Source: Fistulifera solaris (lineage: Eukaryota). Taken from it: a stretch of 64,000 bases of DNA. The position numbers were made by a program, and so were the translations under genes. Shown in pieces: positions 36,343-54,558 of this stretch (its first letter is position 1; each line of letters begins with the position of its first letter). The stretch spans positions 310,001-374,000 of the forward strand of contig AP026139.1 in assembly GCA_030295235.1 (NCBI GenBank), in the 5' to 3' direction. The notes under the pieces were generated by a model that worked only from the letters and a program-made list of their open reading frames with translations, ran no database searches and was not told the origin of the DNA.

Positions 36343-36718
36343 CGTGTGCATTCGTTCCTCGGATGTTGCGTGACGTCAGTCGTCGAGCCGATCAAAAGTA
36401 CTCCGGAGTAGTTGAAAGGTGTGACGGTCGCATAACTTGCGGTACTTAATACATAGAGCATCCAGTCCCGTTTCTACATATTCGTTTCGCTACGGTTATA
36501 ACTTTGATCTATGATGTAGCCGGTCGGCTCGCCAGTTATTGACGAGAAAGACATCATCGAGAGGAGCAACAACAGCCATGCTGTGAGAAAGAATTATTAT
36601 TCCCCCCTCTTCTACTTATTATCATAATAGTGAGTTTCGTCATTATTGATTGACGCCGTGTTCATTTCTTTTCTACTTTTCCAACAAAATACAGTTCGCA
36701 ACTGTTTCCGAAGACGAT

Positions 36719-37979
36719 ATGCCTCCCCGGGAAGCCGTCGATGAACGACTCGAGGTTGTAGTTTCCGAATCCCCCATTGCTGTACGAAGACGGCGACTGA
36801 CACCAACACCCTACACAGAATACAATCCACCCTTTTCCGATTCGAAACGGCTCCGACGATCCCTGACGGGTGATATGGTGACGACAGCGGAATGGGTCCA
36901 GCGCTCTTGGCAACTGCATTTTGGTGTTTCCCTTTCCGTTTTGACGTTTGGTTACTTCGCCAACCAACCTGCCAGGTACGTAAACGGAGATTTTTTTCTG
37001 ATAGGCGGTGTATAGCCGTCGTCTCTGACTTTCAGTTTTTATCTCGCATTTTGTTAGTAAATACATTCCCATCGATCCGACTTTACTCGTAGGACAGGAA
37101 TGTGAACGGGCCTTTCTGAATGTTCTATCCTCGTCTCTCGAGGATCCTTTTTCTACTGTGTGCTGTAGTGCAGTCAATATACACGGTATTTGCAATAAGG
37201 TGCGCTGCTTCATGTGTTGCACTTCTCTTGTAGCCCTGAAACTCATACTGTCACTCGATTCGATGTTGCAGACAACGCTACCACTCGGAAGCCGACTCTC
37301 GCGATTCCCGGAGGCGTGGCTGATTCCTCTATTTCCGTTAATACTAAGCTGGTGTGTGAATCGTTGGAATAATACTATACAGAACAATCAAACCATGATA
37401 CGCCGACTGGTCCTTTACATAACAATCATGCTAATTCGTGGTGTCATACTTTATCGAGGAATGAATCAAATGGAAACCTATTTTCATAGCACCGATGCTT
37501 CGTGTTGGTACCAAGAGTATTTGCGGGAGGATCAATCAACTTGTTATGGACGATCCTTTGATTTTTCGGATCATGTGGTCCTGTACATGGCGCAAATACT
37601 CCCCATATGCTTGGCTGAGACACTCGAATGCATACAACAACCTCCTACGCTGCCACCACGCCGTATTATGTCGACACAAACCATGACATTGTTAACGAGC
37701 ATGAATGGGGGAATCAATCCAGACGAGGAGACACCTTCGTCTCCAAAAAAGAAATGCCCGACCGTGCGACCTCTCTCGGTCGTGATTGTGTTCGGGACTC
37801 TCTACTTGTATTTGATCACGTTGTGGGGTTCGTACCGTACCACAGCATACTTTCATACGGGTCCGGAAGTCTTTATTGGATTTGCCGTGAGTCTTTTGCT
37901 GCAGTGGCCCCTGTATCGTTTGCAATGTTCGGAGCAACCATTTATACGCCACGTACAAGAATGGTTCTTTGGGAAGTAG
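36719..37979 (+). CDS. FIT (Scs3/FITM)-like multipass membrane protein, intron-containing
   Basis: SFDFSDHVVL and TAYFHTGPE resemble the two FIT His motifs; several TM segments; donor AG|GTACGT near 36976. Confidence 0.6.
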
Positions 37980-38036
37980 CAATAGTGCTAGTACAGAAAT
38001 GTTAATCATGCTTTGTGAACAAATTAGAATTTTAAT

Positions 38037-38882
38037 TTACATTACCATCGCCGGAAACAATTCGCGACGACTCGCTTGTCCGAAATACAGACCCGCGACG
38101 ACCAAGAGTAGATTTATGGCGGCTTTGTTATCACTACACACTGCACGGTGTTGTGCGACCTTTACAACAAGTTTACGTAAGGTGGCAGCATCTTGTCGAT
38201 GTAAGGGCGTTTCCAGTCGTGCCAAGAGTGCATAGCACCACTCATAATACTGTGAACTAGTAAGTTGTGTGGAAGAAGCCAAATGTTGTAAGACGCGACG
38301 TATCATGACTTGATCCAGTTGACACACCAGTTGCACCGTCGGCATATGATATCCTTCCGGTGGCAGTGCGTCTTTCCAGGCGGCGCTGGTGGTAGCGTCA
38401 TCGTCATCAGTAGTTTCTTCGACGTGCCCGCTACAAAACTGGATCCATCCGGCTCGATCTTTCATGGACGGAACGGTCGGGAGGAATCGATGTTCTTTTC
38501 CACCAACTCCTTGTTGATGACACACGCTTAAATACTCTCGTAATTGTTCAAATATCTCTAAAGTTTGCGCAATCCACGCGGCTTCGTGGGGAATTCTTTC
38601 TTTCGGCAGTGGAATTTGCGTGGACAATAAATACTGCAGGGAAGCCGCCGACCCATCCAAAATTTCATAGCCAGCCTTGTGAGAGGAAATGTGTGTTTGT
38701 GAAGAAGCTACGAGGGATGTATCGGGAATGCCGCGAGCTTGCTGGGCAACGCGTTGCAAATACTCGGAAGCTTCCATCGTATCGACATCGTCAAAAGAGA
38801 TTGTGTTGTTGTTGTTGTTGTTGTCGTCGTCGTCGTAGTCAAAACGTTTCCGTTTTGTCGGTAGACAGGGCTGTTGAGACAT
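38037..38882 (-). CDS. GEMIN2: Gemin2/SIP1 (SMN complex)
   Basis: ASEYLQRVAQQARGIP; WCYALLARLETPL..AATLRKL; NLLLVVAGLYFGQ. Confidence 0.85.
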   Translation of the reverse strand: MSQQPCLPTKRKRFDYDDDDNNNNNNTISFDDVDTMEASEYLQRVAQQARGIPDTSLVASSQTHISSHKAGYEILDGSAASLQYLLSTQIPLPKERIPHEAAWIAQTLEIFEQLREYLSVCHQQGVGGKEHRFLPTVPSMKDRAGWIQFCSGHVEETTDDDDATTSAAWKDALPPEGYHMPTVQLVCQLDQVMIRRVLQHLASSTQLTSSQYYEWCYALLARLETPLHRQDAATLRKLVVKVAQHRAVCSDNKAAINLLLVVAGLYFGQASRRELFPAMVM

Positions 38883-39145
38883 GATTGTCGAACAGTGGAA
38901 GGAAAGATGTGCAAACCGTAGCACTTCTAAAGTATAAATGGATGAACTATAAACGAAAAAAGAAAATTGTGAGGCGCTGTCGTCGCGATGAGGAGGTGTC
39001 GAGATAATTAAGGTTACGCGTTATGAGCTAAAAAGATTGTGATCAGAAAAGAAAAAGATGCAAAATAAGTCGTAAACAAAACATCAAAGAATATAATTCG
39101 GATTATCGTGGTTTGAAGAATGCTTTCTCTGTTAGAACAATACAA

Positions 39146-39835
39146 ATGAGATTGATACTTGGTCGACAAAGCGCTTGGCTTGCAATGGCTCTACCGACGG
39201 CATCTTCGCTTCGTGGAGCATCACCACTGCTTGTTCGACGCTCCCACAGAATGAATGACACAGCAGGTAGTCAGGACAATTCCGAAGCTACTGCCAAAAA
39301 GTATACATTCAACGGCTGTTCGGACGACGAAAATAAGAGTTCTGTGGCCGTAACGTTTAATACGGGTCACACAATGACAACGGATTTGCCCCTTCGTATG
39401 GGAGGTAAGGATCAGGCCCCGCAACCGGTCGAATGCTTGTTAGCGGCTTGGGCGGGATGTACGCAAGCAACGGCCTTATTTGTGAGTCGGCAACTGATGC
39501 GAGATAATAAGCGTAGTCCGCTACTAGAACGAATGGAATTTGTCAACATTACGGCAACACGAGATGAACGAGGAGCCTTGGCGTTGGCGATCCACGAAGA
39601 TCCGCCCGCACAGAGTCGAATCCAGACCCTTGCCGGAACCATTGTGGTGTGGCCTTCGTTCGACGAAGAATTGTTGCAATTGTTGCAAGAACAAACCGAA
39701 TTGCGATGTCCGGTAGCCAGTATGCTTAGCGCGAGTGGTTGTCGTATGAACGTGGAGTGGATCAATGGAGATGAAAAAGAGAATAGGAGAAGCGTTTTCT
39801 CTAGAAACAGGAACAAGAGCAATATTCCATTGTAG
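39146..39835 (+). CDS. OsmC/Ohr-like protein with organelle-targeting-like N-terminus
   Basis: TDLPLRMGGKDQAPQPVECLLAAWAGC...RCPVASML. Confidence 0.85.
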   Translation: MRLILGRQSAWLAMALPTASSLRGASPLLVRRSHRMNDTAGSQDNSEATAKKYTFNGCSDDENKSSVAVTFNTGHTMTTDLPLRMGGKDQAPQPVECLLAAWAGCTQATALFVSRQLMRDNKRSPLLERMEFVNITATRDERGALALAIHEDPPAQSRIQTLAGTIVVWPSFDEELLQLLQEQTELRCPVASMLSASGCRMNVEWINGDEKENRRSVFSRNRNKSNIPL

Positions 39836-40252
39836 AGACGTAAACGAGTCGTTTACTTCGTAGTGATGCTACTAGATGCTTTCTAGGCGGAAAGAGCACA
39901 AGCAAGATCAAGGCTAAGGGTCACTTCAATCCCGCTATCCTTATTCGTTTCCACGTGGAAACATTGTTCCCGTGACTGAACTCTCCTTAAAAAAGTACAG
40001 CGGCAATGCACAGAGACATTTTCTCGCCGCGAAGGAAATAATTCGTTGTAATTGATTCATATTATTTCATTCAAGCACACTACTATTCGTATAACTGTCA
40101 TTTCTTTTCTTTTTTTCATCCAAACAACTTATCCTTCCGATTTCCCGCAAGTGAAAAGAGAGACGGAATTGCAATACGGAGGGAACTTGTGGCAATTGAC
40201 AGAAAAAAGCCGTACTTGGGCAAACGCGGCGTCTTCATCACAGCAAAACATC

Positions 40253-43200
40253 ATGACTCTATCCAATTCGTTCACATACCGTCGATTTCTTCGTCTTTTT
40301 CTACTGGGTGCCTTTTCTGCGGCAGCGCCCGACTTTTTGGGTGTTCCCACGACTGCCGGACCACTCGATGACGCCAAATGCAATGTCGAAGATTTAGAAC
40401 AAGCCAATGATCTGCAACTGTTTGTCATTTTACAAGAATTGCGCAATACGACCTTCTTTCGCAACTTCTTAGTCGATCTCGATCGTCCTTGTCCTTTGCA
40501 GTCTTGGAGAAAAAGAGACAGCGAGCAAGAAGAAGAAGAGGAATTTGAATGCGGCGGTAATGAGGAAGCGGATGAAGATGCTGAACCGGCTTGTCATGTT
40601 GATCTTAGTTCGAATAGCAACCCCTTTTCGTCGAATGCCTTATTTTCCATGGCTACCACAGGATTCGAATCGAAGGCACAAAAGGACACATTTAAGTGGC
40701 AGAAACAAACCGATATTGTGGTCAAAGACGAAGAGCCCTGCGAAGAGCCGCTTTTGCCCGATTCCTTTTGGATTGATATTTGTAGTCCTCCGGGGAAAAC
40801 GGCGGAAGAAAAGCTTGTTAATTTGGCTATGAATCCTGAAAAGAATACCGGATACAACGGGACGCACATTTGGAAAGCCATTTATGAGGAAAATTGTTTA
40901 ATGGTCGATGATATGAACAGTAAAGAACTGATGTGTTTCGAAGAACGTGTCTTGTACCGGCTGTTGTCGGGATTGCACACGTCCACGACATTGTCGATTG
41001 CTATGAACTACTATCCGCCATCCAAGCGAAAGGGACGGACCGAATACGAAGCAAATCCGGATTATTTTATGAAGAAGTTCCATGATAATCCGGAACACAT
41101 TCGGAATTTGCATTTCTCGTACGTCGTTTTGTTACGTGCCTTGCAAAAGGCAGCACCGGTGCTACACGAATTTGATATTCGAACGGGGGATATTGTGGAA
41201 GACGAAACGGCCAAAGTGCTGTTGCGTCGATTGTTGGATTCAGCCATTTTGCAATCCTGTTCGAACGTCTTTTCGGCGTTTGATGAATCGCTGATGTTTC
41301 AGCAGGATACTCGTTTTAATGTTGTTACTCTGCAGAAAAATTTCAAAGGCGTCTTTCACAATGTATCGTCGATTCTGGATTGCGTGCAATGTCAGCAGTG
41401 TAAATTGCACGGAAAGATGGCCATGTTGGGGTATGGGACGGCACTCAAAGTACTTTTCATGAGAGAAGAGCCACCTGTTATGACTCGAAACGAAATTGTG
41501 GCGTTCATCAACACTATTGCGAAGTTCTCTGAAAGCATTCGTCAGGTCCGTGAACTTACGCATCTTTATTTAGAGAAACAAGAGCAAAAGGTGGCCAAAA
41601 TGAAACAGACAGCCGCCCTGCCTCAACATATTACAATTGTGGATGGAATTACAATAGACGCTTTGGATGGTGCCGTAGGTCTCATTGCCAAGTTAGGTCA
41701 GGAAAATCTTATCGATTGGGAAAGAGAGGCTGAACTTGTGCAGTTGGCTTTAGAGCGAAATCCAGAGTTGTTGATTTTGGTAAAACATTACGGTAACGAC
41801 GTGTCGAAATTCCTCGAGCTGGCAAGTTCGATCGGATTCGTCGATACAAAAGCGCCGCTTCCAGATGCCATAATCGTAGGAAGTGGCCTGGCAGGCCTAT
41901 CGGTCGCTCTCAATATTCTTGATCGAGGTGGAAGTGTTGTGATTATTGAAAAGGAACACCTACTTGGTGGAAACTCGAACAAGGCTAGCTCTGGTATCAA
42001 TGCGTACGTCTCACCTGACGAAGCAGGCGCTGACTCCTTGGATTTATTTCGCAATGACACTACCCGTTCAGCAGGATCGTCCGCCCGTCAAGACTTGATT
42101 GATGTGTTGGTTACTAATAGTGGATCGGCTGTCACTTGGCTACGCGAGCGAGTTGGTGTAGACCTTTCGCTGAAGGCACAGCTGGGTGGCCATTCCTCGA
42201 AACGTACACATCGGCCAAGCAACGGTATGGCGGGTGCAGAAATTATTTACGGTATGCAGAAGGCTGTCAGAGAGTATGAGCAGACAGGCCGTGTGAAAAT
42301 ATTAGTTGATACTCGAGTTAGCTCATTAGTAGCGGATGATAACGGTGCTGTTATTGGAGTTGAATGCATCAGTGCTGGAATAGACGAGGCCTACAAGCTA
42401 CATGCACCCAACGTAATTTTAGCTACAGGTGGATTCGCTGCTGACCGTTCCTCTGGATCTTATCTGGAACAGTATCGACCTGAATTGTTGAAGTTCCCCA
42501 CGACAGCGGGCCCATTCTCCACCGGTGATGGAATATCCCTTGCGACAACTTTAGGTGCGGGAACTGTTGACATGAGTAAAGTACAAGTGCACCCAACTGG
42601 TTGGGTCGATCCTAAAGATCCCGACAATACAAGCAAAGTCTTGGCGGCTGAGCTTATGCGGGGCGTTGGGGGCATTCTTATCAACAAAGAAGGGGATAGA
42701 TTTGTCAACGAACTCGGAACAAGAGCACACATTACGGAACGAATGCTCTCTCATGACCCCATTTACGAAAAAAACGGTGCATGGGATAAGAGTCGGCCGG
42801 TACCAACTTTCTCGCTCGTCCTCTCGTCGTCTGCTGCGGAAGAGGCTAAGAAACATGTGGATTTGTACAGTCACAAAGGCTTACTTACTCGAATAGAGGG
42901 TGTGTCTCTTCTTGCACGGTGGATGAATGTACCGAAAGCGAAATTAGTTAAGACTTTTCAAGATTACCAGGATGCATCTAAGGCTGGAAGTGATGCATTT
43001 GGAAGAGTTACTTTCCGTAATTTACCAGCCGAGTCATTGGAAAATGAAGTTTTTTATGCAGGGACTGTGACACCTGTATTGCATTATTGTATGGGAGGGA
43101 TTACAATCGACACCGAAGGGTATGTGTTGAATGTGAACGGTGAACGAATACCTGGTCTGCATGCAGCGGGGGAAGTGACCGGGGGTGTTCACGGCGTAAA

Positions 43201-43564
43201 TCGACTGGCTGGGAATTCGCTACTAGAATGCACTGTCTTCGGATCTCTAATTGGACGCAGAATTCCGATCGCAAACCCAATTAATCGCGGGCCCAAACAA
43301 GGTCAAGGAATGAAATCCAACAAAGACACCTCGCTACGCAACGTCTCATCAGCTGAACTTCATCAGCACAACACCGAAGATGATTGCTGGGTTGCAATTC
43401 ATGGTGTCGTGTACGACCTTACAGAATTTGCAAGTGAGCACCCAGCAGGTCCTGAGTCTATTTGGAGTCTGGCTGGGGGCGACGGAACCGAAGCTTTTGA
43501 TGCTGTGCACAATAAAGGACTACTTGAAGACTTTGCCGAAGATCGAATTGGTCTTCTCGTATGA
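40253..43564 (+). CDS. ERO1 - flavocytochrome-c/Osm1-type fumarate reductase - cytochrome b5 fusion (1103 aa from ATG 40253)
   Basis: Signal peptide; ERO1 motifs NPEKNTGY, IWKAIYEENC, LYRLLSGLH, DCVQCQQCKLHGK; FRD motifs GSGLAG, GGNSNKASSGIN, QVHPTG, ELGTR, HYCMGG, HGVNRLAGNSL; b5 WVAIHGVVYDLTEF..HPAG..FDAVH; one uninterrupted ORF. Confidence 0.93.
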   Translation: MTLSNSFTYRRFLRLFLLGAFSAAAPDFLGVPTTAGPLDDAKCNVEDLEQANDLQLFVILQELRNTTFFRNFLVDLDRPCPLQSWRKRDSEQEEEEEFECGGNEEADEDAEPACHVDLSSNSNPFSSNALFSMATTGFESKAQKDTFKWQKQTDIVVKDEEPCEEPLLPDSFWIDICSPPGKTAEEKLVNLAMNPEKNTGYNGTHIWKAIYEENCLMVDDMNSKELMCFEERVLYRLLSGLHTSTTLSIAMNYYPPSKRKGRTEYEANPDYFMKKFHDNPEHIRNLHFSYVVLLRALQKAAPVLHEFDIRTGDIVEDETAKVLLRRLLDSAILQSCSNVFSAFDESLMFQQDTRFNVVTLQKNFKGVFHNVSSILDCVQCQQCKLHGKMAMLGYGTALKVLFMREEPPVMTRNEIVAFINTIAKFSESIRQVRELTHLYLEKQEQKVAKMKQTAALPQHITIVDGITIDALDGAVGLIAKLGQENLIDWEREAELVQLALERNPELLILVKHYGNDVSKFLELASSIGFVDTKAPLPDAIIVGSGLAGLSVALNILDRGGSVVIIEKEHLLGGNSNKASSGINAYVSPDEAGADSLDLFRNDTTRSAGSSARQDLIDVLVTNSGSAVTWLRERVGVDLSLKAQLGGHSSKRTHRPSNGMAGAEIIYGMQKAVREYEQTGRVKILVDTRVSSLVADDNGAVIGVECISAGIDEAYKLHAPNVILATGGFAADRSSGSYLEQYRPELLKFPTTAGPFSTGDGISLATTLGAGTVDMSKVQVHPTGWVDPKDPDNTSKVLAAELMRGVGGILINKEGDRFVNELGTRAHITERMLSHDPIYEKNGAWDKSRPVPTFSLVLSSSAAEEAKKHVDLYSHKGLLTRIEGVSLLARWMNVPKAKLVKTFQDYQDASKAGSDAFGRVTFRNLPAESLENEVFYAGTVTPVLHYCMGGITIDTEGYVLNVNGERIPGLHAAGEVTGGVHGVNRLAGNSLLECTVFGSLIGRRIPIANPINRGPKQGQGMKSNKDTSLRNVSSAELHQHNTEDDCWVAIHGVVYDLTEFASEHPAGPESIWSLAGGDGTEAFDAVHNKGLLEDFAEDRIGLLV

Positions 43565-44864
43565 TGATCTCTCTGCTATCGTTGGCAAACCTCGACGATT
43601 ATGATGAAACATTTGGGTTTCCGGTTTGTCGCTGCAACGTATACTTGGCCGTTCAAAGTAGGCCTGCTCACCGACTATTAAGACTGAGAAACTTTGAAGA
43701 TGAGCTTTTATCAATTACTTTAGCTAGTGTAGGAACAAATAATGGTTTAGCTAATTTTCAAACATATGAAGAACTCCATAATTGTCAACTCAACCTAGCG
43801 TACCACACTCATCGGAGCATAAAGTAGACAAGAGAACAACAGCAACAAACGGCGAATTAAACACTGAAGACAAAAGCGAGACTCTGGTTTGGAACAAAGA
43901 CTCAAGGAATGGAGGAACTTAATGCGTACATCGTACTCAGCCGGATGGTGAAACGAGACCCAAACGAAAGGGAAGTTAAAAGGTCTAGCTTGCTACCGGT
44001 ACCAGAATTGTCCATTTGTACTAATGATTCAATCACCGCCTCAATGTGAAATCCAAAACAAGGCGGGGACACGACCTGCTGCATGGCCGCTCCGCAGCAT
44101 CGAGGCGTCCCAATGTTGAATCACATCGTCATTGAGACCGCTCCCTAGACACTTGCCTTCACTGTTTCACGCGAGGATACAAACAGACGACTCTTTAGAT
44201 CCGGGCAAAGTCATCCCCGCGGCGGAGTATTGCGCACGTCAAGACCGCAATCTTCCCGTTTGTATACCGCAGTCAATCAGTTCCGCCAATCGTTTCAACG
44301 TAGTGCGCGGACTGGAACCCCTATGAAAGCTAGCGAGGTGCGAATTATTTGTTTTTGCCGGTCGCGTCATACAGCCGAAATACCTTCGCATGTCCTACAG
44401 CTAAAAACTGCGTCAATCCCTCGATTGAGCGCCACTCTATTGTACTAACGCGGCTTCTGTTGCGAAATTTGCCACCACCGCCCGACGTACTGCATTTGTG
44501 GTTTCGTTCACCATGAACGTGGACGACCCGTCAGTAACAGCAAGACATCAATCATGCTCCAACGAAGCGGATTGCTGTAAAAGTCTTTACAATGCCCGGT
44601 ACATCAGCTATCGGAACGGGGACGCTGTTTGTCGAACGCTTATAGCTTGTGGATTGATTTACCATTAAAGGAACGACGGAGCTGGGTACCCGAAGTAGCC
44701 CGTCATGGATTATCGACTATAATAGCAACTCTTCAAAAAAATAACTCGTCGGAACGCTACATCTTGCACTCAAAAGTTGCTTTTCGTAGGCGAAATTTTG
44801 GAAAACAAGCGATCGAAGCCGGGTCAAACCGCGTGATAATGGGCACTGATTAAGGAGTTAAAGC

Positions 44865-46990
44865 AGCAGATTCTAGCTTCCAACGATACAAATCATATCA
44901 ATGCGACCACGAGAAGGAGAGAAACGATCCAGGTCTTCACGAAAGGCAGTAAGATGAGGCGTTGAAAGGCCAACACCACTCGAGCGCACGCGAGGTAATG
45001 GGGAGTTTTTTCACATCTTAGGAGTGCGAGGCGCGACAGTCCGCACCGTACACAATACCCAGGACGGTAAGGAGTCGATGAGTGACGATGCAACGTATAT
45101 CAGACGATATTACGTTGCTTTCAGAGCAAAGATGACATCATAGTGTGATTTTTGGTTGAAAGCGACCTGCGGTGTATTTTTTCTACGTGATTTGAGTACC
45201 ACGTATTTGCATGTAGCGAGGACTACCAAGGCTACGTTACTATTGTACACGATACAAATACGACAGTATTGTATCTAAGCCGTACCGCTGCTTATTGTCG
45301 CTGCTTCGTTCGCACTTTTCAAAGGAATCGCTGTGTTGAAAGGTAAGTTACCATGAAGATCTTTATTAACGTCTACTTTCGCACCCTTTTGTCTCTTTCT
45401 TATAAAAGATGAAGTCTTTACTCACCCCTGTGCTTGCTTTTGATGTCTTGAAAGTTTGAAATCACTTACAAATAGCACAATTGACAAAGTCAAGTGTCAG
45501 CAGCATCGCAAAGCAAACAAAATGAAAAATAACACAATCAGTCCTATCGTGGTGGCACAAGGAGCTTCCTCTCCTCGCGGTCGCTCGCTAACAAAGTACT
45601 TGAAAAAAAGAAAGATATCCTTGTGAGCAGCGGGTCTAAATGGAAATCGAAGCAGTGGGTTCCTGCTAGCGGTTTCTCTGTCGAAGAGACGGTGGATATT
45701 GCAATACGATTTGGTGACAAGTTCAAGGCTTTGCGGCATACAGAGCATAGCGTCGTTCGTCGTGGTGAATTTACCACGCTTGACGCGATCCTTGACGACA
45801 GTTTTAAGATCTTGAGAAAGGAGTTGAGTGATATGGCTGCCTTTCAGACGAAGACTACTGCGTCCGCGAGTGAAGTTATGGGTACGGCCGCAACAGCGTC
45901 ACTTGATCCTGTTGCTGCCGCTGTTGCTGCAGTGATGGAGGTGAATTGGCTGTTTCTTCTTCTCGAAAGCGTCCGTATTCGCGGTCGAAAAAGAATGAAA
46001 ATGTTTCGAAGAAAAGCCAGAAAGGACCGAAGAAAGCACGCGTCGCAACAAATGTAGTGCATCATCCCATTGTATCCCGTTTGCCGGCCAGCAATCGTGG
46101 TCCCTCTCCTACTCCTACCGAGCAGCCAGCGTCCTGTTTCAGCAAGTAGTAAGGGGATAGAGAAATGGCAGATCGACATGTTGATGGACTGGATGAAGGA
46201 GAATGATTACAATTCTTCTCCCGACTGGACTGCAATTGACGACCTTGTCAAGCTGCATCGGCATGAAGCCATCGCAGATAGTCGCTTGGATCGCAGAGCT
46301 CGGAGCTAGTGTTGTTAAGCTCCGCAGTGGTGGGGGTGCTGTTGATGATTCAGTGGGAGTGGGACTTGGAGTTGAGGTTGCAACGGAGCAACAGCCAGAA
46401 ATCATCTTAATCGATGATGACAACAACGACGAAGCTGTTAGTGTCCCGGAGCTCGCTGAAGAGAACGACAAGGATGATGATATCAGTAGCCTACTTGACC
46501 TCGCCACGGACGAAATGATTGACGAATTCTACGCAAAGTATGCAGGAGTCAATCTACCAGACGCCACAAATGAAGTTGCAGGTGTTGATGACGAAGGTAC
46601 AGAGCCCACTGTCGCAAAGCCGTGCAAGGTGCTTCAAGATGCTTCCGACGTTCACAATGAGTCCCAAAATGAATCTGAGTCGTCTGGGGGCGGCGAAGCT
46701 GCATTGGAGTCGTCGTGTTTGGAATCACTCGAGTCGTTGGAGCCACTCATTTTTGAGCTTGGCTTCGACTTTGACGATGAATGCGAATGTGAAACTTCAT
46801 TTTCATCTGAGTGCGTGAAGAATCGAGCGAACGACCCGCTCATTAAGGGAAACTCATCGGGTTAGCTGCTTGGATCGTTGACTGCTGATGAAGGTGCGTT
46901 GATCAAAGAGATTGACTTTTCCTTATCTGGCGTTTATGGGGATCTTCACAGTCCATCCACGCATATCCGGTCAGAATTGATTGATAGTAT
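44865..46990 (+). repeat. Third, more diverged copy of the homeobox-like gene unit including upstream region
   Basis: Colinear with ~15220-17400 with many substitutions. Confidence 0.9.
45522..46865 (+). CDS. TALE-homeodomain-like protein, paralog C (frameshifted in assembly)
   Basis: EKWQIDMLMDWMKENDYNSSPDWTAIDDLV..GMKPSQIVAWIAELG; acidic tail. Confidence 0.6.
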
Positions 46991-47561
46991 CTTCGGCTGT
47001 TTGCTCCCTGATCGTTTGATCGGATGTTGATGAATGGTTTCGTCTTATCGTCGTTTTCCCTATGAGTGCTGTCGCTGTCACTTTTCCCGCCAATACCCTT
47101 TCCAAGAGTCCATCTCCGACTGCTTAGCCATGAATACCTTCTTAATCGTTTTCGCTTCGTATGAATGAATCAAAATAAAGAGTTGTTCTTCCTTTGTTGT
47201 GCTGTCACCGTCTTCCAAACTAGTACTATAAAAAACATGTCAATTCTGCTGTTCTTTAAAGTTAAATTTGAAAATTTTCGTAAATAACTCTGGCTTGCTT
47301 CGTAGTTGCAAATATCTGCTATCCTTGTTTGATTGGATCCATTTTTTCGTTGAACCGTAGCTAGAAAAAAATTGCGCGATCGCGCGGTCTTTCATGTCAA
47401 CGCTCGTGGCCATTATACCGTACAAAGTATACACGAACCTGCGGTAATTTTTTTGTCGTGCATGATCGCGCTTCAATGTTTTTTTCCCCTTCATTCTTTT
47501 CAACAACCAACAACAAACGAGTGAGTAATTGACTAGCTATTGCTGTAAAACGTAAAACACC

Positions 47562-48721
47562 ATGTTTGGTCTGGGCAAGAAGAACGTGGGACCTCCGGAG
47601 AAACCAGGATATGACACAGCCCGAGGATGCACAGCTTTGGTGACAGGCTCCTCGGGTTTATGCGGTGCTCGCCTCGTCGAAATGTTGCTCGAACGAGGCG
47701 CCAAGCACGTCATTTGCTTTGATCTTATGCCACCGGATGCTACTCTTAAGCAGCGTTTTGCGGAAGCGGAGAAAAAAACAAGGGAAAGTTAACGATTCTC
47801 ACTGGCTCCGAGGGGGATCTTACCAATGGCAAAGCCGTTATGGCTGCTTTTGAAAAGGATTCGAAAATCGATGTGTGTTTTCACATCGCCGCCCTGGTCG
47901 GTCCGTTTCACGACAAAGAAAAATATCGTGCGGTTAATTACGAAGGTACTTTGAATGTGATCAAGGCTTGTCGTGAGAAGAAAGTTCCCAAACTCGTATA
48001 CAGTAGCAGTCCGTCGACTCGATTTACCGGTGGAGATATCACCGGCCAAACCGAAGATGAGCTTGCGATTCCTAATACTTTTCTAGCTCTCTACGCGGAA
48101 ACGAAAGCAATGGGTGAAAAGGCCGTAACAGAAGCGTGTTGTGATGCGTTGTTGACTGTTTCTGTGGCCCCTCACCAAGTATACGGTCACTATGATTCCT
48201 TGTTTCTTCCGAATTTGCTCGAGACTGCTGGCAATGGGCGTCTTCGTATTTTCGGTAAAGGCGGAAACAAGATCAGTATGTGTCATGCCGACAACTATGC
48301 GCATGGGCTCATGTGCGGAGCGGATGCTTTGTATCCAGGAAGTCCGGCACTGGCCAAATTCTACATTGTCACGGATGGTGCACCGGTGGATTTCTGGAAG
48401 ACGCTGAATCAAGCGGTAGTCGCCATGGGTTTTACGGATCTGTATTCCAAGTTTCATCTTCCGGCCTGGTTTTTGTATACGATAGCCTACGCGGCGAATG
48501 TTGTTGGCTTCCTGCTGAATCGAAAATTCAAGTTGAATCCCTTCAATGTGAAAATGCTAACGATTCACCGCTACTTCTCTATTCAAAATGCACAGCGTGA
48601 CCTTCAGTACGAACCAGTGCGTACATTTGAGGAGGCTTGGCCCGATACAATTGCTTGGTTCAAGGAAAACTGGCTGCCTGGCTTCTTGGAACGACAACGT
48701 AACTCGAAGAAGACTGATTAA
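47562..48721 (+). CDS. NSDHL: Sterol-4-alpha-carboxylate 3-dehydrogenase (3-beta-HSD family; indel near 47775)
   Basis: LVTGSSGLCG Rossmann motif, FHIAA, VNYEGT, VYSSSPS, YAETK, PHQVYG. Confidence 0.8.
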
Positions 48722-49040: not shown

Positions 49041-50389
49041 ATGAGAATAATAGTTCTTCTGCAACTTCTTTTCAATTCAGAAATCCTGCTGTAGCGTGGG
49101 TATCATCACCCCGAATCCTCCAGTCTCGTTCGGTGCTTTCTGTGCAGAAACGTTCCTCGGTGGTCGACGAGACGAAATTGGACGATGAAGATAGCATCAT
49201 TCCGATTGAGGGCGCTCAGTTCTTTGGTGGCAACAAACAAAAGGAAGAGTTCTTCGATCCAGTTGCCGAAGCTCAGGCCGGTTTAGAAACAAGGCAGTAT
49301 TACGATCGGTTTGCCGATACGCTGGCATTCCAAGATGCTGCTGCCACATCTGTTGCCCGATCGGTACAACAACAAATCAATCGTGTTCTGTACGAAGAAG
49401 AACAGAGTCAGGTAACAGAATATTCTTATAAGCCTTCGATGGAGTGGAAAACTTCGTTTCCTGTCAAAGAAGCTAATCCGTTGATGGAACTGAAGAATGC
49501 TCTTGCTTTTTACGAGCACATGGATGTCGCTATTACTTCCGCAAAATCGATCAGCTCGAACACCATTGAAGTTCGATGGGAAATCGCTGTGACGTGGCCT
49601 ATTTTTTGGGAGCCGCGTTTGCTGTTTACAGGACAGTCGATTCTGTCGATTGATGGAAGCTCTATTACTCGACAAGTGGATACACTGGATGAAAAGGACT
49701 TGTTGGTTAGTGTTGCGAAGCAAATCTTCCCTCGTTTTTGGGATATTTATCACATTGGAATGACTCCATCTGCAGAATTGTCTCCTCGCTTTCCCCAATC
49801 CAGTCTTTTGAAGTCGTACAATGTGTACGAATTGCCAGCGCGGCTGTATTTACAGCCCACGCAGTTGGACACGGGTAAACGAAGCGACAATACTGCAGCT
49901 ATGATCCCCAACCATGCTTTTACATGTATTATCAAAACAATGGGCCCCCAAAAGCAAAGATATGTACCAACATCGCCAGTTGAAGTCAAATTGATCTCCC
50001 AAGGAGACGGCTTGCAAATTCAATGGCACATTCCCTTGGCTGTAGAGTTCGCATCACAAGCAACGCTAGCTCTTCCCGATGCCGATGAAGAAGCCGAAGC
50101 AAGTTTGAACCCAGCATGCGGGTATAAGTGGAAAGAATCGCGAAAGGTTGCAACTGTGCCGTATGGTGGCAGTCCGCAGGATGAAGAGATAGCGAATATT
50201 CGAAAGCAGCTATACAACCAAGTAATCAAAGATGGCTTGAAGCCTCGTATGGAGAACGGAAGACCCGTTTTCTTTTTCTGGATGAACTCTGTGAAAGCAT
50301 GTTATACTAGCAGCGGTCTGGGGATGGGAGTATACGATTGGCGACCTACATTTGTGAAAGCCAATGAAGTTGGTATTGAATTAGAATAA
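49041..50389 (+). CDS. Putative plastid protein: SnoaL/DUF2358-like + SOUL-like domain
   Basis: VRWEIAVTWPIFWEPR..TGQS..ITRQVD; KVATVPYGG..LIKDGL-like helix..NEV; N-terminus frameshifted. Confidence 0.55.
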
Positions 50390-50476
50390 TCGTCAAATAT
50401 GTCGCTATTCAGCTCTGTTTACATTCTGGTCGATCGTCACCATTTCGTCGCTCGTTATTCACTTGCGTGTAATCCA

Positions 50477-53400
50477 TTAGTGACATAGGGGGTTGCTCGT
50501 TACTTGTGCTTCCGATTCTCCTGTATCCTTACACGCTATGCGTTTTCTCAAAGGTTGATAATCGGCGCCAATTCCGAAGCTTGTTGATGGCTCATTATTT
50601 TGAGACATCGATGCACTGTCTCGATTTACAGAATCAGTGGCAAACGATTCTATGACGTCTTCATCGGGTCGATTCGATTGTTGTTCGTGTTTTTGAGTCG
50701 GTGCAAGAACATTTTTCAACGGTAGTGGTTCCTTGAAGGTCACTCGTGAGGGGTCTTTCGAAGTATTGGTAAGAGATTGTAGACGTTGTCTAAATTCAAG
50801 TTCGTATTCTTGCTTCTCCTTCATTGCTTTCATCAAACTAGGACTACGTTCTCTCAAGTCGGAGTCAAAGAAGTTGCCATGAGAAGCAGGATAACTTTTC
50901 GGCTCAACAAAAATGACGTATCCGGCTTTGATGGCTTAATAGTTGGGATACCTGTCTTTCGCAGGCGTGGTGAGTTTTCTTCGCATAACCTTAGTGCACT
51001 TTTTTGGAGGAGTACGAGGAGGAAGGCCATCAAGCATCTCCTGACCTCGATATTGGTTATCAAAAATGTCTAGCTCGTTTTCTTCGCGTAAATCGTGTTG
51101 CAAAGCGTCTCTTAGTACCGTGTCATCATTCGTCAACTCTTGACGCTGTATTTGGAGCTTCAAAGAAGTTATCTCTTCGTTTAATTGGGCAATCAGTTCA
51201 TCCTTTTCAGCTGCTCGCCGCTCAGCCTTTTCGATGTCAATTGACGCGGAATAGTTCTTCATCAGAAGTTCTCGTTTTTCGTCAACCAAATTCGATATGT
51301 GTGCGTCATACTCGAACTTAATCTCTTTTAGTTTCTCGTTCGTCATTCCTCCCGATCTGCCGTATTTATGTTGCTCGTTTTCGTCGTATTCGCTCATAGC
51401 CGACTCTGGTATTACTCCGATAGAATGACTATAGCGAGAAGCTTTCTTCAGTTCTCTGTTTTCTTCTAAGAGTAGAGAGTACTCCTTTTGCAGCTTTTCA
51501 AGCTGTGACTGGAATTGTCCACCCCTCCTGTTCCTCGAAGCTGCCTTCTGCAACGGTCGTTATCCTCCTGAAGATCGAAGTTTTCCCGCTCGAGTGACCT
51601 CATCTTTTCTTGACAAGTGTCCACCTCAATAGTGAGCTCATTGACTTGAGCAGTAGAAAATTCAAGGTGGTTTTTCAGAGAGGCAATTTTTCCTTCAAAC
51701 ATCTCATGTTCACTTTCTTTTCCATTTTGAGCTTCTTCAAATACGCATCAAGTTGTTGATTCTTCTCAAACAACGCGTCGAGCTCTTCCTTTGCTTGGTT
51801 CTTCGCTTCAGCAATCATAGCTTTTCCTTTCCGTACAAGGTTTTCCTTATCTTCTTTGGCGCCTTCTTTGATTCGCTCGATTTGGTCTTCGTATTCCCTT
51901 TGCAAAGTTTCAATGCGCTCTTGTGACTTCTCTTTGTACTTATTCAAACCTGAGGTTGACCTTTCTTGAAGACCATCATACTCGTTTTTCCATTTCGATT
52001 CGATGGAAAGTAATTTCGCTTCGGAGTCTTCTTTTGTTTTGCAGTGAGCTTTTCTTTCTTCCTCAAGAAGCCTATTCATTGTCTTTTGGAGGTCATCAAT
52101 GTCTTTCTTTGCTTTCGCTTCCAAAACTTCACGAGTTGCTTCCAAAGCTCTGTGCGCTTCATCCGTCACCTCTTGCCGCGCTTTTCGAAGCTCATCGATA
52201 CTCTTTTTCTGATTTGCGTTTTCTTCCAACAAATTTTCGATTTCGCTTCGCAAAGACGATGCCTGCGTCATAGCAACTTGATGATCCTTTTCCGATTGCT
52301 TTAGCTTCTGGCCAACATCTTCTAGCTGCGACTCCAAGTCGACGTTGGCTCTATGTAGTCCAGAAAGCTTCTCTTCCGAAATTGCTAACAGCTCTTGTAA
52401 TTCGGATACTGTCTTTGACGACCGCGCCAATTCTGACATAACTTGTGCCATCTCTGTGGCCAGCTCATTAATTCTCGTCGAGCGTTCGGAAGCCGCGGCT
52501 TCCATTGTGTTGTACTTTTCCTTCCAATGGTCAACGTCTCGACGAAGATCGGCATTTCGTTTTTCTGAGTCGTTGAGAGATTGTGCCGTCGCGCTCAGCT
52601 TTTGCTCTACTGTTTGACAGTGTTCATCGACCTCTGATTTCGCGTGTTGTAAATCAGCCAACTCCATCGAAACATTATTTAATTCAGCAGCCAATTTTCT
52701 TTCGCGTTCCTCCGACTGGAAAAGAGTCTGGAGAGCTTTTTCCAGCTTATCCTTCGTTGAAAGATACTCCTTCTTGTATTTGTCACCCAATCGCTTTGTA
52801 TCATCCAAGGTGTCAGCCATTTTCTGTACCGAGTCGTTTGACCGTTTTTCTGCGAATTCTCGCAGCTTTTTGTTTTCGTTTCTTAGACGGTACAATTCTT
52901 CCATCACTTCTGGATTGAGCTCATTGATCCCCTCACCAACGCCTGTGGTGGGCTCGCTTGGCGCTTTCGCATCTTCTTGAAGGCGCCTACGGAGTTCATC
53001 CATCTGTTCTTTTTGAAGCATTGCCCCCTTCCACAGACTTTCGTTGACATGAGACTGATCATTGGCTTTTTTCTCTAGCTTCTCTAATGCATCTTGGGTC
53101 TCAACAAGCTTCACCTCTGCTTCGATTGCTCGAACCTTGTAGTCTTCAAGCTGGCGCCTCAAAGGTGCTAACGTTTGAAGCTCACTTTCGAGTCTGACGA
53201 TCTCGTCCACTGCATTCCCGTGCGCCTCCTGCTCTCGACGCAAAGCGTCCTTCGTGTCCTGAAGCTCGTTTATCCGCTCTTTGTACTTCCGTAGCTTTTC
53301 CGACAACTCCGGCAGAGCGCCTTGGTTTTGATTCAGAACCTCGATTTCTTCCTTGGCTTTCTGCAGCTCTTTGATTGCTTGTTCACCTCTGCTAGCCTTG

Positions 53401-54558
53401 TCCCGAATATCATGAAGCTGATTATTCAATGCTTCCACATGTTCCTTGTATTTCGCAATCAATTCTTCCTCACGGTCGAACGATTGTTTTTCGAGTTTCA
53501 TCATTTCATTGCGGTGGCGACCTTCAATTATCTCGAGTTTACCTTGAAGTTTCTGCTCTCGCTGCTTGTAAGTATCCATGTAGCTTTCGTATTTCACAAT
53601 TCTCGAGTGCAGCTCGCGGAAAACTATCTGCATTCTACCCGGAGACTCAAATGTTCCCGGACTTGGCATTGTAATTTCTGGGTGAGGGGACGCCATGCGA
53701 CGTGAAGCATCTGGAGTGTAGCCGGAACTACGAATTGAGTCAACTGTTTTCCGAGAATGACTTCGCTCTGGACTAAGGTTGCTTTGAATTGGTGTCGCCA
53801 TGGATGTGTTGGAGTCACTTTGTTCAATCGGATAAGAGCGCCCCGAGCTTGCAGATTGAGGTGGCTGTGGACTTCGTTCTGCTTCCGATATAGGTGTCTC
53901 CAACAAGGATCGTCGCTGACGCAACGCAGATTTTGGTGGGGTCATTGAGCTCGAGCCGACCCCACGTGACGGTGACCTCTTTTTCGGTGTGCTTTTCCCA
54001 CGACGCTCGATCAAAGACATCAACGTTTTCTGCACGGATTTATTCAGTCCCATAATTTTCTCAATGTATTGACGACGCCGTTGCATATTAGGGGATTGAA
54101 CTGCACAGTCAAGTAGATTGCTCAAAACGTAAAGTTTTAGACGCGCAGGGGTCATTCGAGAGTCTGAGTCCTCTCGGTTCACGTCCTTCGGAGAGTGGGC
54201 GTGCCTTTGTTGCAGTCAGCATCAAAAGCGAAGTCCAAATTCGGTCTGTACCCGGCGATTTCCTAGCCATGTCTTGAAAATCAACCTTTGAGTCACATAT
54301 TTCTTCTGCAATTCTCGAAATTGCGCTGAAGAACACAGGAAGGGAAGACTTTGAGAGAACACGAAATAAGTACATAAGGAAAAAACTAGTTGCTGAGCAA
54401 ATATCGTACCGTGTAACTTCAGGAGAGGCTAAGCGCTCAACAACCATGTCAGGATTCTTCAAAATTTCGGTTGAGTTGACATTCTCAAAGTTGAACAAAT
54501 TAAACGTATTCAGCCAATCAAGTAGAGAAGCAAGTTCTTTGACCTGCTCTGCGTTCAT
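50477..54558 (-). CDS. HOOK-family coiled-coil dynein adaptor-like protein (intron near 54330-54409; several indels)
   Basis: LLDWLNTF; CAVQSP..QYIEKIMGLNKSVQKTLMSLIE; ELNPEVMEELYRLRNENKKL; long coiled coil. Confidence 0.75.

Follow-up and report, generated by a model that had tools for sequence, protein, structure and literature searches.

A fusion of Ero1, soluble fumarate reductase and cytochrome b5 in Fistulifera solaris and other eukaryotes: a candidate thiol:fumarate oxidoreductase of the secretory pathway

How eukaryotes form disulfides without O2, and how they avoid the H2O2 made by Ero1, are open questions for which the only worked example so far is the weak and debated interplay between Ero1 and Osm1 in yeast. 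In the accessible sections of the study by Kim et al. 2018 (PMC6242907), Osm1 resident in the endoplasmic reticulum (ER) re-oxidizes Ero1 with fumarate under anaerobic conditions, either via free flavin adenine dinucleotide (FAD) or by direct binding. According to the same sections, the two proteins bind each other weakly (about 150-200 uM) at the place where the haem domain of Shewanella flavocytochrome c3 (Fcc3) would sit, the flavins of Ero1 and Osm1 are separated by a gap of >20 Å, and free FAD alone suffices as the electron carrier from Ero1 to Osm1. Those sections mention no natural fusion; the word “diatom” occurs 0 times in them, and “fusion” or “fused” occurs only in the methods (PMC6242907). 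Here, a gene of the diatom Fistulifera solaris is described that encodes an ERO1 domain, a soluble fumarate reductase (FRD) domain and a cytochrome b5 domain in a single chain. The gene occupies positions 40253 to 43564 on the forward strand of the window, that is, the whole stretch of 64,000 nucleotides (nt) that was analyzed (GenBank assembly GCA_030295235.1, contig AP026139.1, positions 310,001 to 374,000). The fusion is common to many protists rather than specific to diatoms, and it probably allows disulfide formation with fumarate instead of O2.

The open reading frame (ORF) runs from ATG to stop over 1103 amino acids (aa), is free of internal stops and needs no intron; the nearest in-frame stop on its 5′ side lies at position 40049. 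From the N- to the C-terminus, the encoded protein consists of a signal-like segment, ERO1, a helical linker domain, an Osm1-type FRD and cytochrome b5 (Table 1), and the Pfam E-values of all three domains are far beyond chance. The ERO1 match reaches 279.8 bits against a cut-off of 27 and spans profile positions 2-354 of 354, the FAD_binding_2 match of the FRD spans positions 1-414 of 414, and the Cyt-b5 match reaches 70 bits against a cut-off of 23.7. Comparison with solved chains related the ERO1 part to human Ero1-alpha (3ahq, E 4.5e-39) and yeast Ero1p (3m31, E 4.1e-35). The FRD part is closest to yeast Osm1 (5glg, E 1.9e-80; Foldseek TM score 0.83 normalized to 5glg), followed by Shewanella Fcc3 (E about 1e-59 to 1e-62), and the b5 part also matches the haem domain of flavocytochrome b2 (3ks0, 1fcb).

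Residues were counted in one alignment of the query with its best 120 homologues (121 sequences in total) and in 27 fused proteins from all lineages. The three cysteines of the Ero1 active-site motif are present in 121/121 of the aligned diatom-type proteins; across lineages, C380 and C383 are found in 27/27 and C377 in 26/27. In the FRD, the dinucleotide-binding glycines of the GxGxxG motif (G543, G545 and G548) are invariant, and the six catalytic residues assigned by alignment to 5glg (H780, E800, R803, R824, H944 and R984) are kept in 121/121 and 27/27 proteins. Their counterparts among the catalytic and substrate residues of Osm1 are given as H281, E301, R304, R326, H435 and R477 in the accessible part of Kim et al. 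2018 (PMC6242907); residue numbers of the 5glg chain differ from these by 30, and this offset was applied in the mapping. H1063 and H1086 of the b5 part align with the haem histidines of the solved b5 domains 4b8n and 3lf5 and are predicted haem ligands, both of which occur in 121/121 diatom-type and 27/27 fused proteins. By its sequence and catalytic residues, the fusion protein belongs to all three families, ERO1, soluble FRD and b5. An earlier note on this DNA had proposed a single stop-free frame at these positions, a Pfam scan for ERO1, FAD_binding_2 and Cyt-b5, a CxxCxxC motif at 41381, a complete FRD catalytic set and both haem histidines of b5. All of this was borne out: the three domains scored well above their cut-offs, the motif starts at aa 377 and aligns with that of yeast and human Ero1, and the set comprises H780 (HPT), E800 and R803 (ExxR), R824 (ELGTR), H944 (HY) and R984 (NRL).

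Table 1. Features of the fusion gene and its product, with positions in the window
Feature	Position	Strand	Basis and remarks
Whole fusion gene	40253..43564	+	single ORF; colinear with the 1105-aa homologue P0002 (92% identity) and 119 further listed homologues
Signal-peptide-like N-terminus, aa 1-25 (RR, then FLRLFLLGAFSAAA)	40253..40327	+	read from the sequence
ERO1 domain, aa 56-432	40418..41548	+	Pfam PF04137, E 4.3e-83
Acidic flexible loop with C100 and C114, candidate shuttle disulfide	40550..40594	+	invariant cysteines
Ero1 active-site motif CVQCQQC (C377, C380, C383)	41381..41401	+	aligned to human DCVGCFKC and yeast DCVQCDRC
Fusion-specific helical linker domain, aa ~466-526, four helices	41648..41830	+	AlphaFold2 (AF2) model; pattern conservation
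Soluble fumarate reductase flavoprotein, Osm1/Fcc3 type, aa 538-990	41864..43222	+	PF00890, E 2e-79
FRD-b5 tether, aa 1004-1028	43262..43336	+	poorly conserved; low confidence
Cytochrome b5 domain, aa 1033-1090, axial H1063 and H1086	43349..43522	+	PF00173, E 1.7e-19

Expressed sequences also contain the three domains in one frame. ORFs with all of them that are marked complete occur in MMETSP/Trinity transcriptomes (P0035, P0083, P0086, P0118, P0133 and P0327). Four public sequencing runs (X1-X4), the kind of which is a guess, were compared with the window. Contigs of runs X2 and X4 were found on 8/8 bins from 40411 to 43618, and contigs bridge the end of ERO1 (41339-41583), the start of the FRD (41801-42018) and the FRD-b5 tether (43250-43450); no joint (skip) inside the fusion ORF was seen in the contigs of the four runs. 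Runs X2-X4 gave no cover over bins 38005-39207 and 44020-47628, and X1 covers 30/30 bins. The coverage pattern of X2-X4 looks like that of RNA, and the blanks in it are not evidence. The only direct hint of spliced RNA in these three runs lies at 37197/37270, where one X3 contig skips 72 nt with GT..AG ends, likely a short intron, at the place where the ORFs 36662-37246 (−) and 37212-37979 (+) meet. Over 42256-42910 and elsewhere in the fusion ORF, contigs of X2-X4 show 23-30 mismatches to the window per ~480-660 nt, mostly transitions, and X1 contigs show fewer; the mismatches of X2-X4 suggest a second allele or a closely related strain.

A search of 5.8 billion proteins gave 651 matches among 7996 scored candidates. 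The best 120 of these 651, which were examined, share 55-92% identity with the query at 88-100% coverage, and all 120 contain ERO1, FAD_binding_2 and Cyt-b5 according to a precomputed Pfam column inspected by eye. The named matches are diatoms: Skeletonema, Thalassiosira, Cyclotella, Mediolabrus, Nitzschia, Cylindrotheca, Mayamaea, Asterionellopsis, Leptocylindrus and Detonula. A HMMER search of 1.84 billion cluster representatives yielded 24,984 matches at E <=0.001, including many full-length relatives at 37-48% identity, and the three domains were found in 8/8 of such divergent relatives that were scanned. Fused relatives occur in the euglenozoan Diplonema ambulator (P0133), the chytrid fungus Batrachochytrium salamandrivorans (P0164), the labyrinthulomycete Aplanochytrium (P0136) and the amoebozoan Copromyxa protea (P0327), as well as in green algae, where the P0134 cluster holds a partial protein of Ostreococcus lucimarinus together with tri-domain members of 1153 aa. 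In the ESM Atlas, where names are automatic and serve as leads only, tri-domain clusters are assigned to Chlorophyta (58 members in the ERO1-listing cluster) and Bacillariophyta (98), and clusters with FRD and b5 and lacking ERO1 are assigned to Basidiomycota and Ascomycota. The expectation of the earlier note that unstudied homologues may exist was therefore right and a large understatement, as the tri-domain protein extends across diatoms and at least five other eukaryotic lineages.

The same note had stated that no characterized protein with this architecture was known to it. In agreement, full-text literature searches, with most subscription journals outside their scope, found no paper describing an ERO1-FRD or ERO1-b5 fusion, and passages of PMC7615655, PMC10407231 and PMC7052976 contained nothing of relevance. 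Domain databases presumably show this domain combination by automatic annotation, and hundreds of entries carry the name “flavocytochrome c” or “fumarate reductase (NADH)” with the Ero1 half unremarked. What is new, judging from the sequences, is the natural joining of two functionally linked enzymes and a putative haem relay in one widely conserved protein; the FRD-b5 module itself is common.

The history of the fusion was approached by two trees. In a quick maximum-likelihood tree of the FRD (44 rows, LG+G4, Shimodaira-Hasegawa-like approximate likelihood ratio test (SH-aLRT) only, unrooted in effect), 27/27 fused proteins fall in one 34-row clade with an SH-aLRT value of 99. This clade also contains six unfused diatom FRD-b5 paralogues and a Baffinella protein, and Osm1 of Schizosaccharomyces pombe, three Saccharomycotina FRDs and one Ceratiomyxa FRD lie outside it. 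The unfused paralogues (P0316, P0319, P0324, P0342, P0161 and P0356; 700-830 aa, extended at both the N- and the C-terminus) form the sister group of the diatom fused genes (SH-aLRT 96-97) and are nested in the fused clade, a position from which it follows that their ERO1 part was probably lost after duplication. Two other candidates for a stand-alone FRD-b5, P0181 and P0173, were set aside as fragments that start within the FRD domain. Baffinella frigidus P0288/P0194 (“FAD binding domain-containing protein”) was likewise rejected as an unfused form: P0288 starts in linker homology and is likely a truncated fused gene, so that this cryptophyte may also have the fusion.

The ERO1-domain tree, likewise unrooted in effect, comprised 37 rows from a shallow search (26 matches at 1e-30), and the tool warned of long-branch effects. 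All diatom ERO1-only sequences found fall inside the fused clade, rust-fungal Ero1 lies across a long branch, and no separate canonical diatom Ero1 lineage was seen in this search. A protein of Corethron (P0290, 496 aa) has the appearance of a genuine ERO1-only form but is placed within the diatom fused clade. P0295 of Nitzschia inconspicua (565 aa), publicly named “endoplasmic reticulum oxidoreductin”, is probably a truncated model that ends within the linker domain, and P0306, P0301, P0294 and P0268, each closely nested among fused proteins, may be fragments; none of these five was retained as a stand-alone ERO1. Since all fused proteins share one FRD clade and the linker domain is present in 27/27 of them, a single origin of the fusion, which would be either very old or spread later between lineages, fits best.

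The region between ERO1 and the FRD is itself a conserved part of the protein. AF2 modeling placed a long helix (412-454) ahead of a four-helix unit (468-483, 489-500, 504-513 and 517-524), the 10-residue block means of the predicted local distance difference test (pLDDT) being ~84-90 over aa 471-520. No Pfam match was found for this domain at E <=0.01. Its sequence pattern is present in 27/27 fused proteins of all lineages and in 0/6 of the unfused diatom FRD-b5 paralogues. The tether between FRD and b5 is of a different kind, with a mean conservation of 0.19 over aa 1001-1025 and pLDDT <50 over aa 1011-1026.

The ERO1 part further contains a loop with a candidate pair of shuttle cysteines. 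C100 and C114 are present in 121/121 diatom-type proteins and in 27/27 fused proteins across lineages, and the surrounding region (aa 86-125) has pLDDT <50 in the AF2 model. In six homologues from centric and araphid diatoms (P0009, P0015, P0028, P0034, P0053 and P0059), the cysteine-loop motif is present twice, first as “C..(L)PD.D..AEPAC” and then as “FEC.GG..ELDDDAEPLC”; the candidate shuttle loop appears to be duplicated in them, with long low-complexity inserts between the copies.

Regarding the compartment, the N-terminus was compared among those homologues that begin with M and extend at least 15 residues beyond the conserved core on its N-terminal side (n = 94). A 10-aa hydrophobic window of at least 2.0 was found in 77/94 of them versus 5/94 length-matched internal segments picked at random. 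With only ~10 residues between the hydrophobic segment and the conserved ERO1 core, a plastid transit peptide would have no room, and no further transmembrane-like segments were found in the fusion protein except a Rossmann strand. The signal peptide proposed earlier is plausible, with its two arginines followed by a hydrophobic stretch, as a reading taken directly from the sequence.

We lean slightly toward the reading that the fusion protein is soluble, resides in the secretory pathway, most likely in the ER lumen, and acts as a single-chain thiol:fumarate oxidoreductase in which the b5 haem serves as a relay. Of its parts, the coupling of thiol oxidation to fumarate reduction seems fairly probable, and the role of b5 as an obligatory relay is put forward more tentatively. 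According to this model, reduced substrates of the protein disulfide isomerase (PDI) type would be oxidized by the loop cysteines C100/C114, which would pass the electrons to the active-site pair C380-C383 and then to the Ero1 FAD. The b5 domain, moving on its flexible tether of ~25 residues, would take single electrons from the Ero1 flavin at its haem and hand them to the FRD flavin, and fumarate would be reduced to succinate at the fully conserved Osm1-type active site. Disulfide formation would thereby be independent of O2 and would not generate H2O2, and O2 may remain an alternative acceptor. The earlier note had suggested a path of this kind, which could serve folding without peroxide in the dark or in anoxia; its proposal is plausible, agrees with the biochemistry of yeast Ero1 and Osm1 and now has a much broader conservation behind it. 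Placed between the two flavins, the haem would close a gap such as the >20 Å one in the yeast pair, and the domain is therefore a concrete candidate answer to the problem of flavin-to-flavin distance.

The midpoint potentials are about −150 to −200 mV for the thiols and flavins of PDI and Ero1, around 0 mV for b5 and +30 mV for fumarate/succinate, and the path would therefore be thermodynamically feasible. Ero1p is reportedly able to reduce acceptors other than O2, a finding attributed to Gross et al. 2006. The fact that FRD-b5 modules without ERO1 are common, together with the analogy with the haem domain of Fcc3, suggests that b5 is the normal electron inlet of this type of FRD. Such a role is consistent with the presence of b5 in every fused protein examined, with the occurrence of FRD-b5 without ERO1 and with changes in the second flavin pocket. 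In the accessible sections of PMC6242907, the pocket of Osm1 for a second, free flavin is formed by S78, P162, W295, F297, L298, F362 and Y363. In the fusion, S, L and Y are kept, W295 is replaced by S/T/G/N, F297 by I/V/T and F362 by L/H, and P162 falls in a gap. The pocket is a feature of Osm1 and not of the wider FRD family, and the loss of its aromatic residues would fit an entry of electrons other than by free flavin.

Several points weigh against this reading. The path would require a source of fumarate within the ER lumen, and the Ero1 flavin would have to be able to reduce a b5 haem. The loop cysteines are spaced by 10-28 residues in the 27 fused proteins, in contrast to the CX4C of the canonical shuttle pair in yeast and human Ero1. 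A KDEL/DDEL-type C-terminus is absent in the fusion protein (P0001), in 44 homologues with C-termini printed and in 10 further sequences, and secretion or another compartment is possible for a protein without a retention signal. The full-length AF2 model has a pLDDT of 72 and a predicted template modeling score (pTM) of 0.50, and the packing of the domains is therefore not confidently predicted. A prediction of the complex between ERO1 (45-440), FRD (536-1003) and haem on one side and b5 (1028-1103) as partner on the other gave a score of 0.00 against a mark of 0.34, with alignments unused by the tool, and carries no weight for or against binding. The protein is near-universal in oxygen-producing diatoms and may hence be a plain housekeeping Ero1, the link to darkness and anoxia being one that we infer. 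Finally, Kim et al. 2018 favored free FAD as the shuttle, which needs no b5, in the accessible sections of their study (PMC6242907).

This last point leads to the alternative that survives best, although we consider it unlikely. The domains may be merely tethered and coupled indirectly via free FAD or a small carrier, so that the fusion raises local concentration and b5 serves a separate purpose, such as accepting electrons from some other donor or delivering them to some other acceptor. The sufficiency of free FAD in the yeast pair (PMC6242907, accessible sections) would support such coupling, as would the existence of unfused FRD-b5 modules, in which b5 can serve the FRD without Ero1, and the lack of a fixed domain packing in the AF2 model. 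It is harder to reconcile with the non-conservation of the pocket aromatics for free flavin, with the retention of both haem histidines in every protein counted, and with a fusion-specific linker in 27/27 proteins, which argues for a built-in geometry.

Less probable again is that the halves work independently, the Ero1 domain being an ordinary O2-dependent sulfhydryl oxidase and the FRD-b5 part performing unrelated lumenal chemistry, such as balancing succinate/fumarate or taking haem-linked electrons from a membrane cytochrome, with a fusion that serves co-expression or co-targeting only. The hosts are mostly aerobic phototrophs or aerobes, and diatoms also keep unfused FRD-b5 paralogues. 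Yet domain order and linker have been kept since the divergence of several supergroups, and fusions of functionally unrelated enzymes are rarely so stable. Moreover, yeast Ero1 and Osm1 interact both functionally and physically (PMC6242907, accessible sections). A further observation in favor of independent halves concerns B7FVF5 of Phaeodactylum tricornutum, an unfused FRD-b5 rather than the fusion, for which four N-glycosites are listed in PMC8678454. Two of the four lie in proper sequons, including a conserved FRNDT motif common to the fused protein, and the listing implies that an FRD-b5 protein may function in the secretory pathway on its own, without Ero1; it is weak evidence, and the data set of PMC8678454 also lists plastid-encoded proteins.

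It is improbable that the fusion protein resides outside the ER, being secreted or located in another endomembrane compartment (cell surface, vacuole or periplastidial space) and acting there as a thiol oxidase or reductase. The missing KDEL-like C-terminus would agree with such a location, and a signal-like N-terminus tells no more than that the protein enters the secretory pathway. Against it, human Ero1 also lacks KDEL and is retained via partners, members of the Ero1 family are to our knowledge ER enzymes wherever they have been studied, and the short distance between the hydrophobic segment and the ERO1 core speaks against a plastid route. An artefact, whether a misassembly or a read-through of two or three neighboring genes, can practically be dismissed, because the frame is single and stop-free and the architecture is colinear in 120/120 listed homologues and 8/8 distant relatives from many independent assemblies and transcriptomes; misassembly and separate transcripts, which the earlier note had itself raised, are excluded by transcripts of other species that encode the fusion in one ORF, and by over 100 independent assemblies.

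The thiol:fumarate reading would have consequences beyond this locus. The fusion of exactly these two enzymes over several supergroups offers independent “Rosetta-stone” support for a real and widespread link between them, and it provides one polypeptide that is suited to purification and assay. It may also help to explain the survival of diatoms in dark, anoxic sediments. A bolder proposal, which we hold to be rather doubtful, is that ERO1-linker-FRD-b5 represents an ancient, pan-eukaryotic and self-contained disulfide machine with fumarate rather than O2 as the terminal acceptor and the b5 haem bridging two flavins, and that diatoms and picoplanktonic green algae may rely on it as their main Ero1 or even their only one. 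If this were true, much of the secretory folding in marine eukaryotes would be peroxide-free and oxygen-independent, and the separate Ero1 and Osm1 of yeast would have arisen from an older design by reduction.

Concerning the rest of the window, the gene directly upstream (39146-39835, +), 418 nt away from the fusion gene, encodes a 229-aa OsmC-like protein (PF02566, E 4.2e-08). We take this family to comprise thiol-dependent hydroperoxide reductases, and the redox-related neighbor may be a coincidence. Further downstream, the AT skew is strongly negative (−0.20 to −0.30) in 50001-54000 over an 826-aa coiled-coil ORF (51675-54155, −) that has a weak HOOK-like match.

Among known systems, Shewanella Fcc3 shares with the fusion protein the flavin and clamp fold, the catalytic residues and a haem domain that feeds FAD. 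It differs as a bacterial, periplasmic protein with an N-terminal tetra-haem c domain, in contrast to the single b-type haem at the C-terminus and the Ero1 at the N-terminus of the fusion. None of the 16 cysteines of P0001 is part of a CxxCH motif, and the part N-terminal of the FRD is ERO1 and linker; the fusion protein is therefore not a flavocytochrome c3, and the source name “flavocytochrome c” is misleading. Unfused eukaryotic FRD-b5 proteins, that is, fungal “fumarate reductase (NADH)” and “osmotic growth protein” and the diatom proteins P0316, P0342 and B7FVF5, share FAD_binding_2 with a C-terminal Cyt-b5. The unfused diatom forms differ in lacking both ERO1 and the linker domain (6/6), and the electron donor to the b5 of proteins without ERO1 must be something else. 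Flexibly tethered b5 domains are familiar from flavocytochrome b2, nitrate reductase and sulfite oxidase, where they shuttle single electrons between a two-electron center and another redox center; their catalytic partners are different, and none of them joins a sulfhydryl oxidase to a fumarate reductase. The nearest parallel is provided by yeast Ero1p and Osm1 (5glg, 1rp4). Osm1 differs from the FRD part in that it has no haem domain and possesses a free-flavin pocket that is not conserved in the fusion; in the FRD tree, S. pombe Osm1 and the Saccharomycotina FRDs fall outside the fused clade, and canonical Ero1 differs in the closer spacing of its shuttle cysteines. The same two activities in kind, with the CxxC and the six FRD residues kept, are present in both systems, as separate proteins in yeast and in the fusion as one chain with a conserved linker and a b5 domain.

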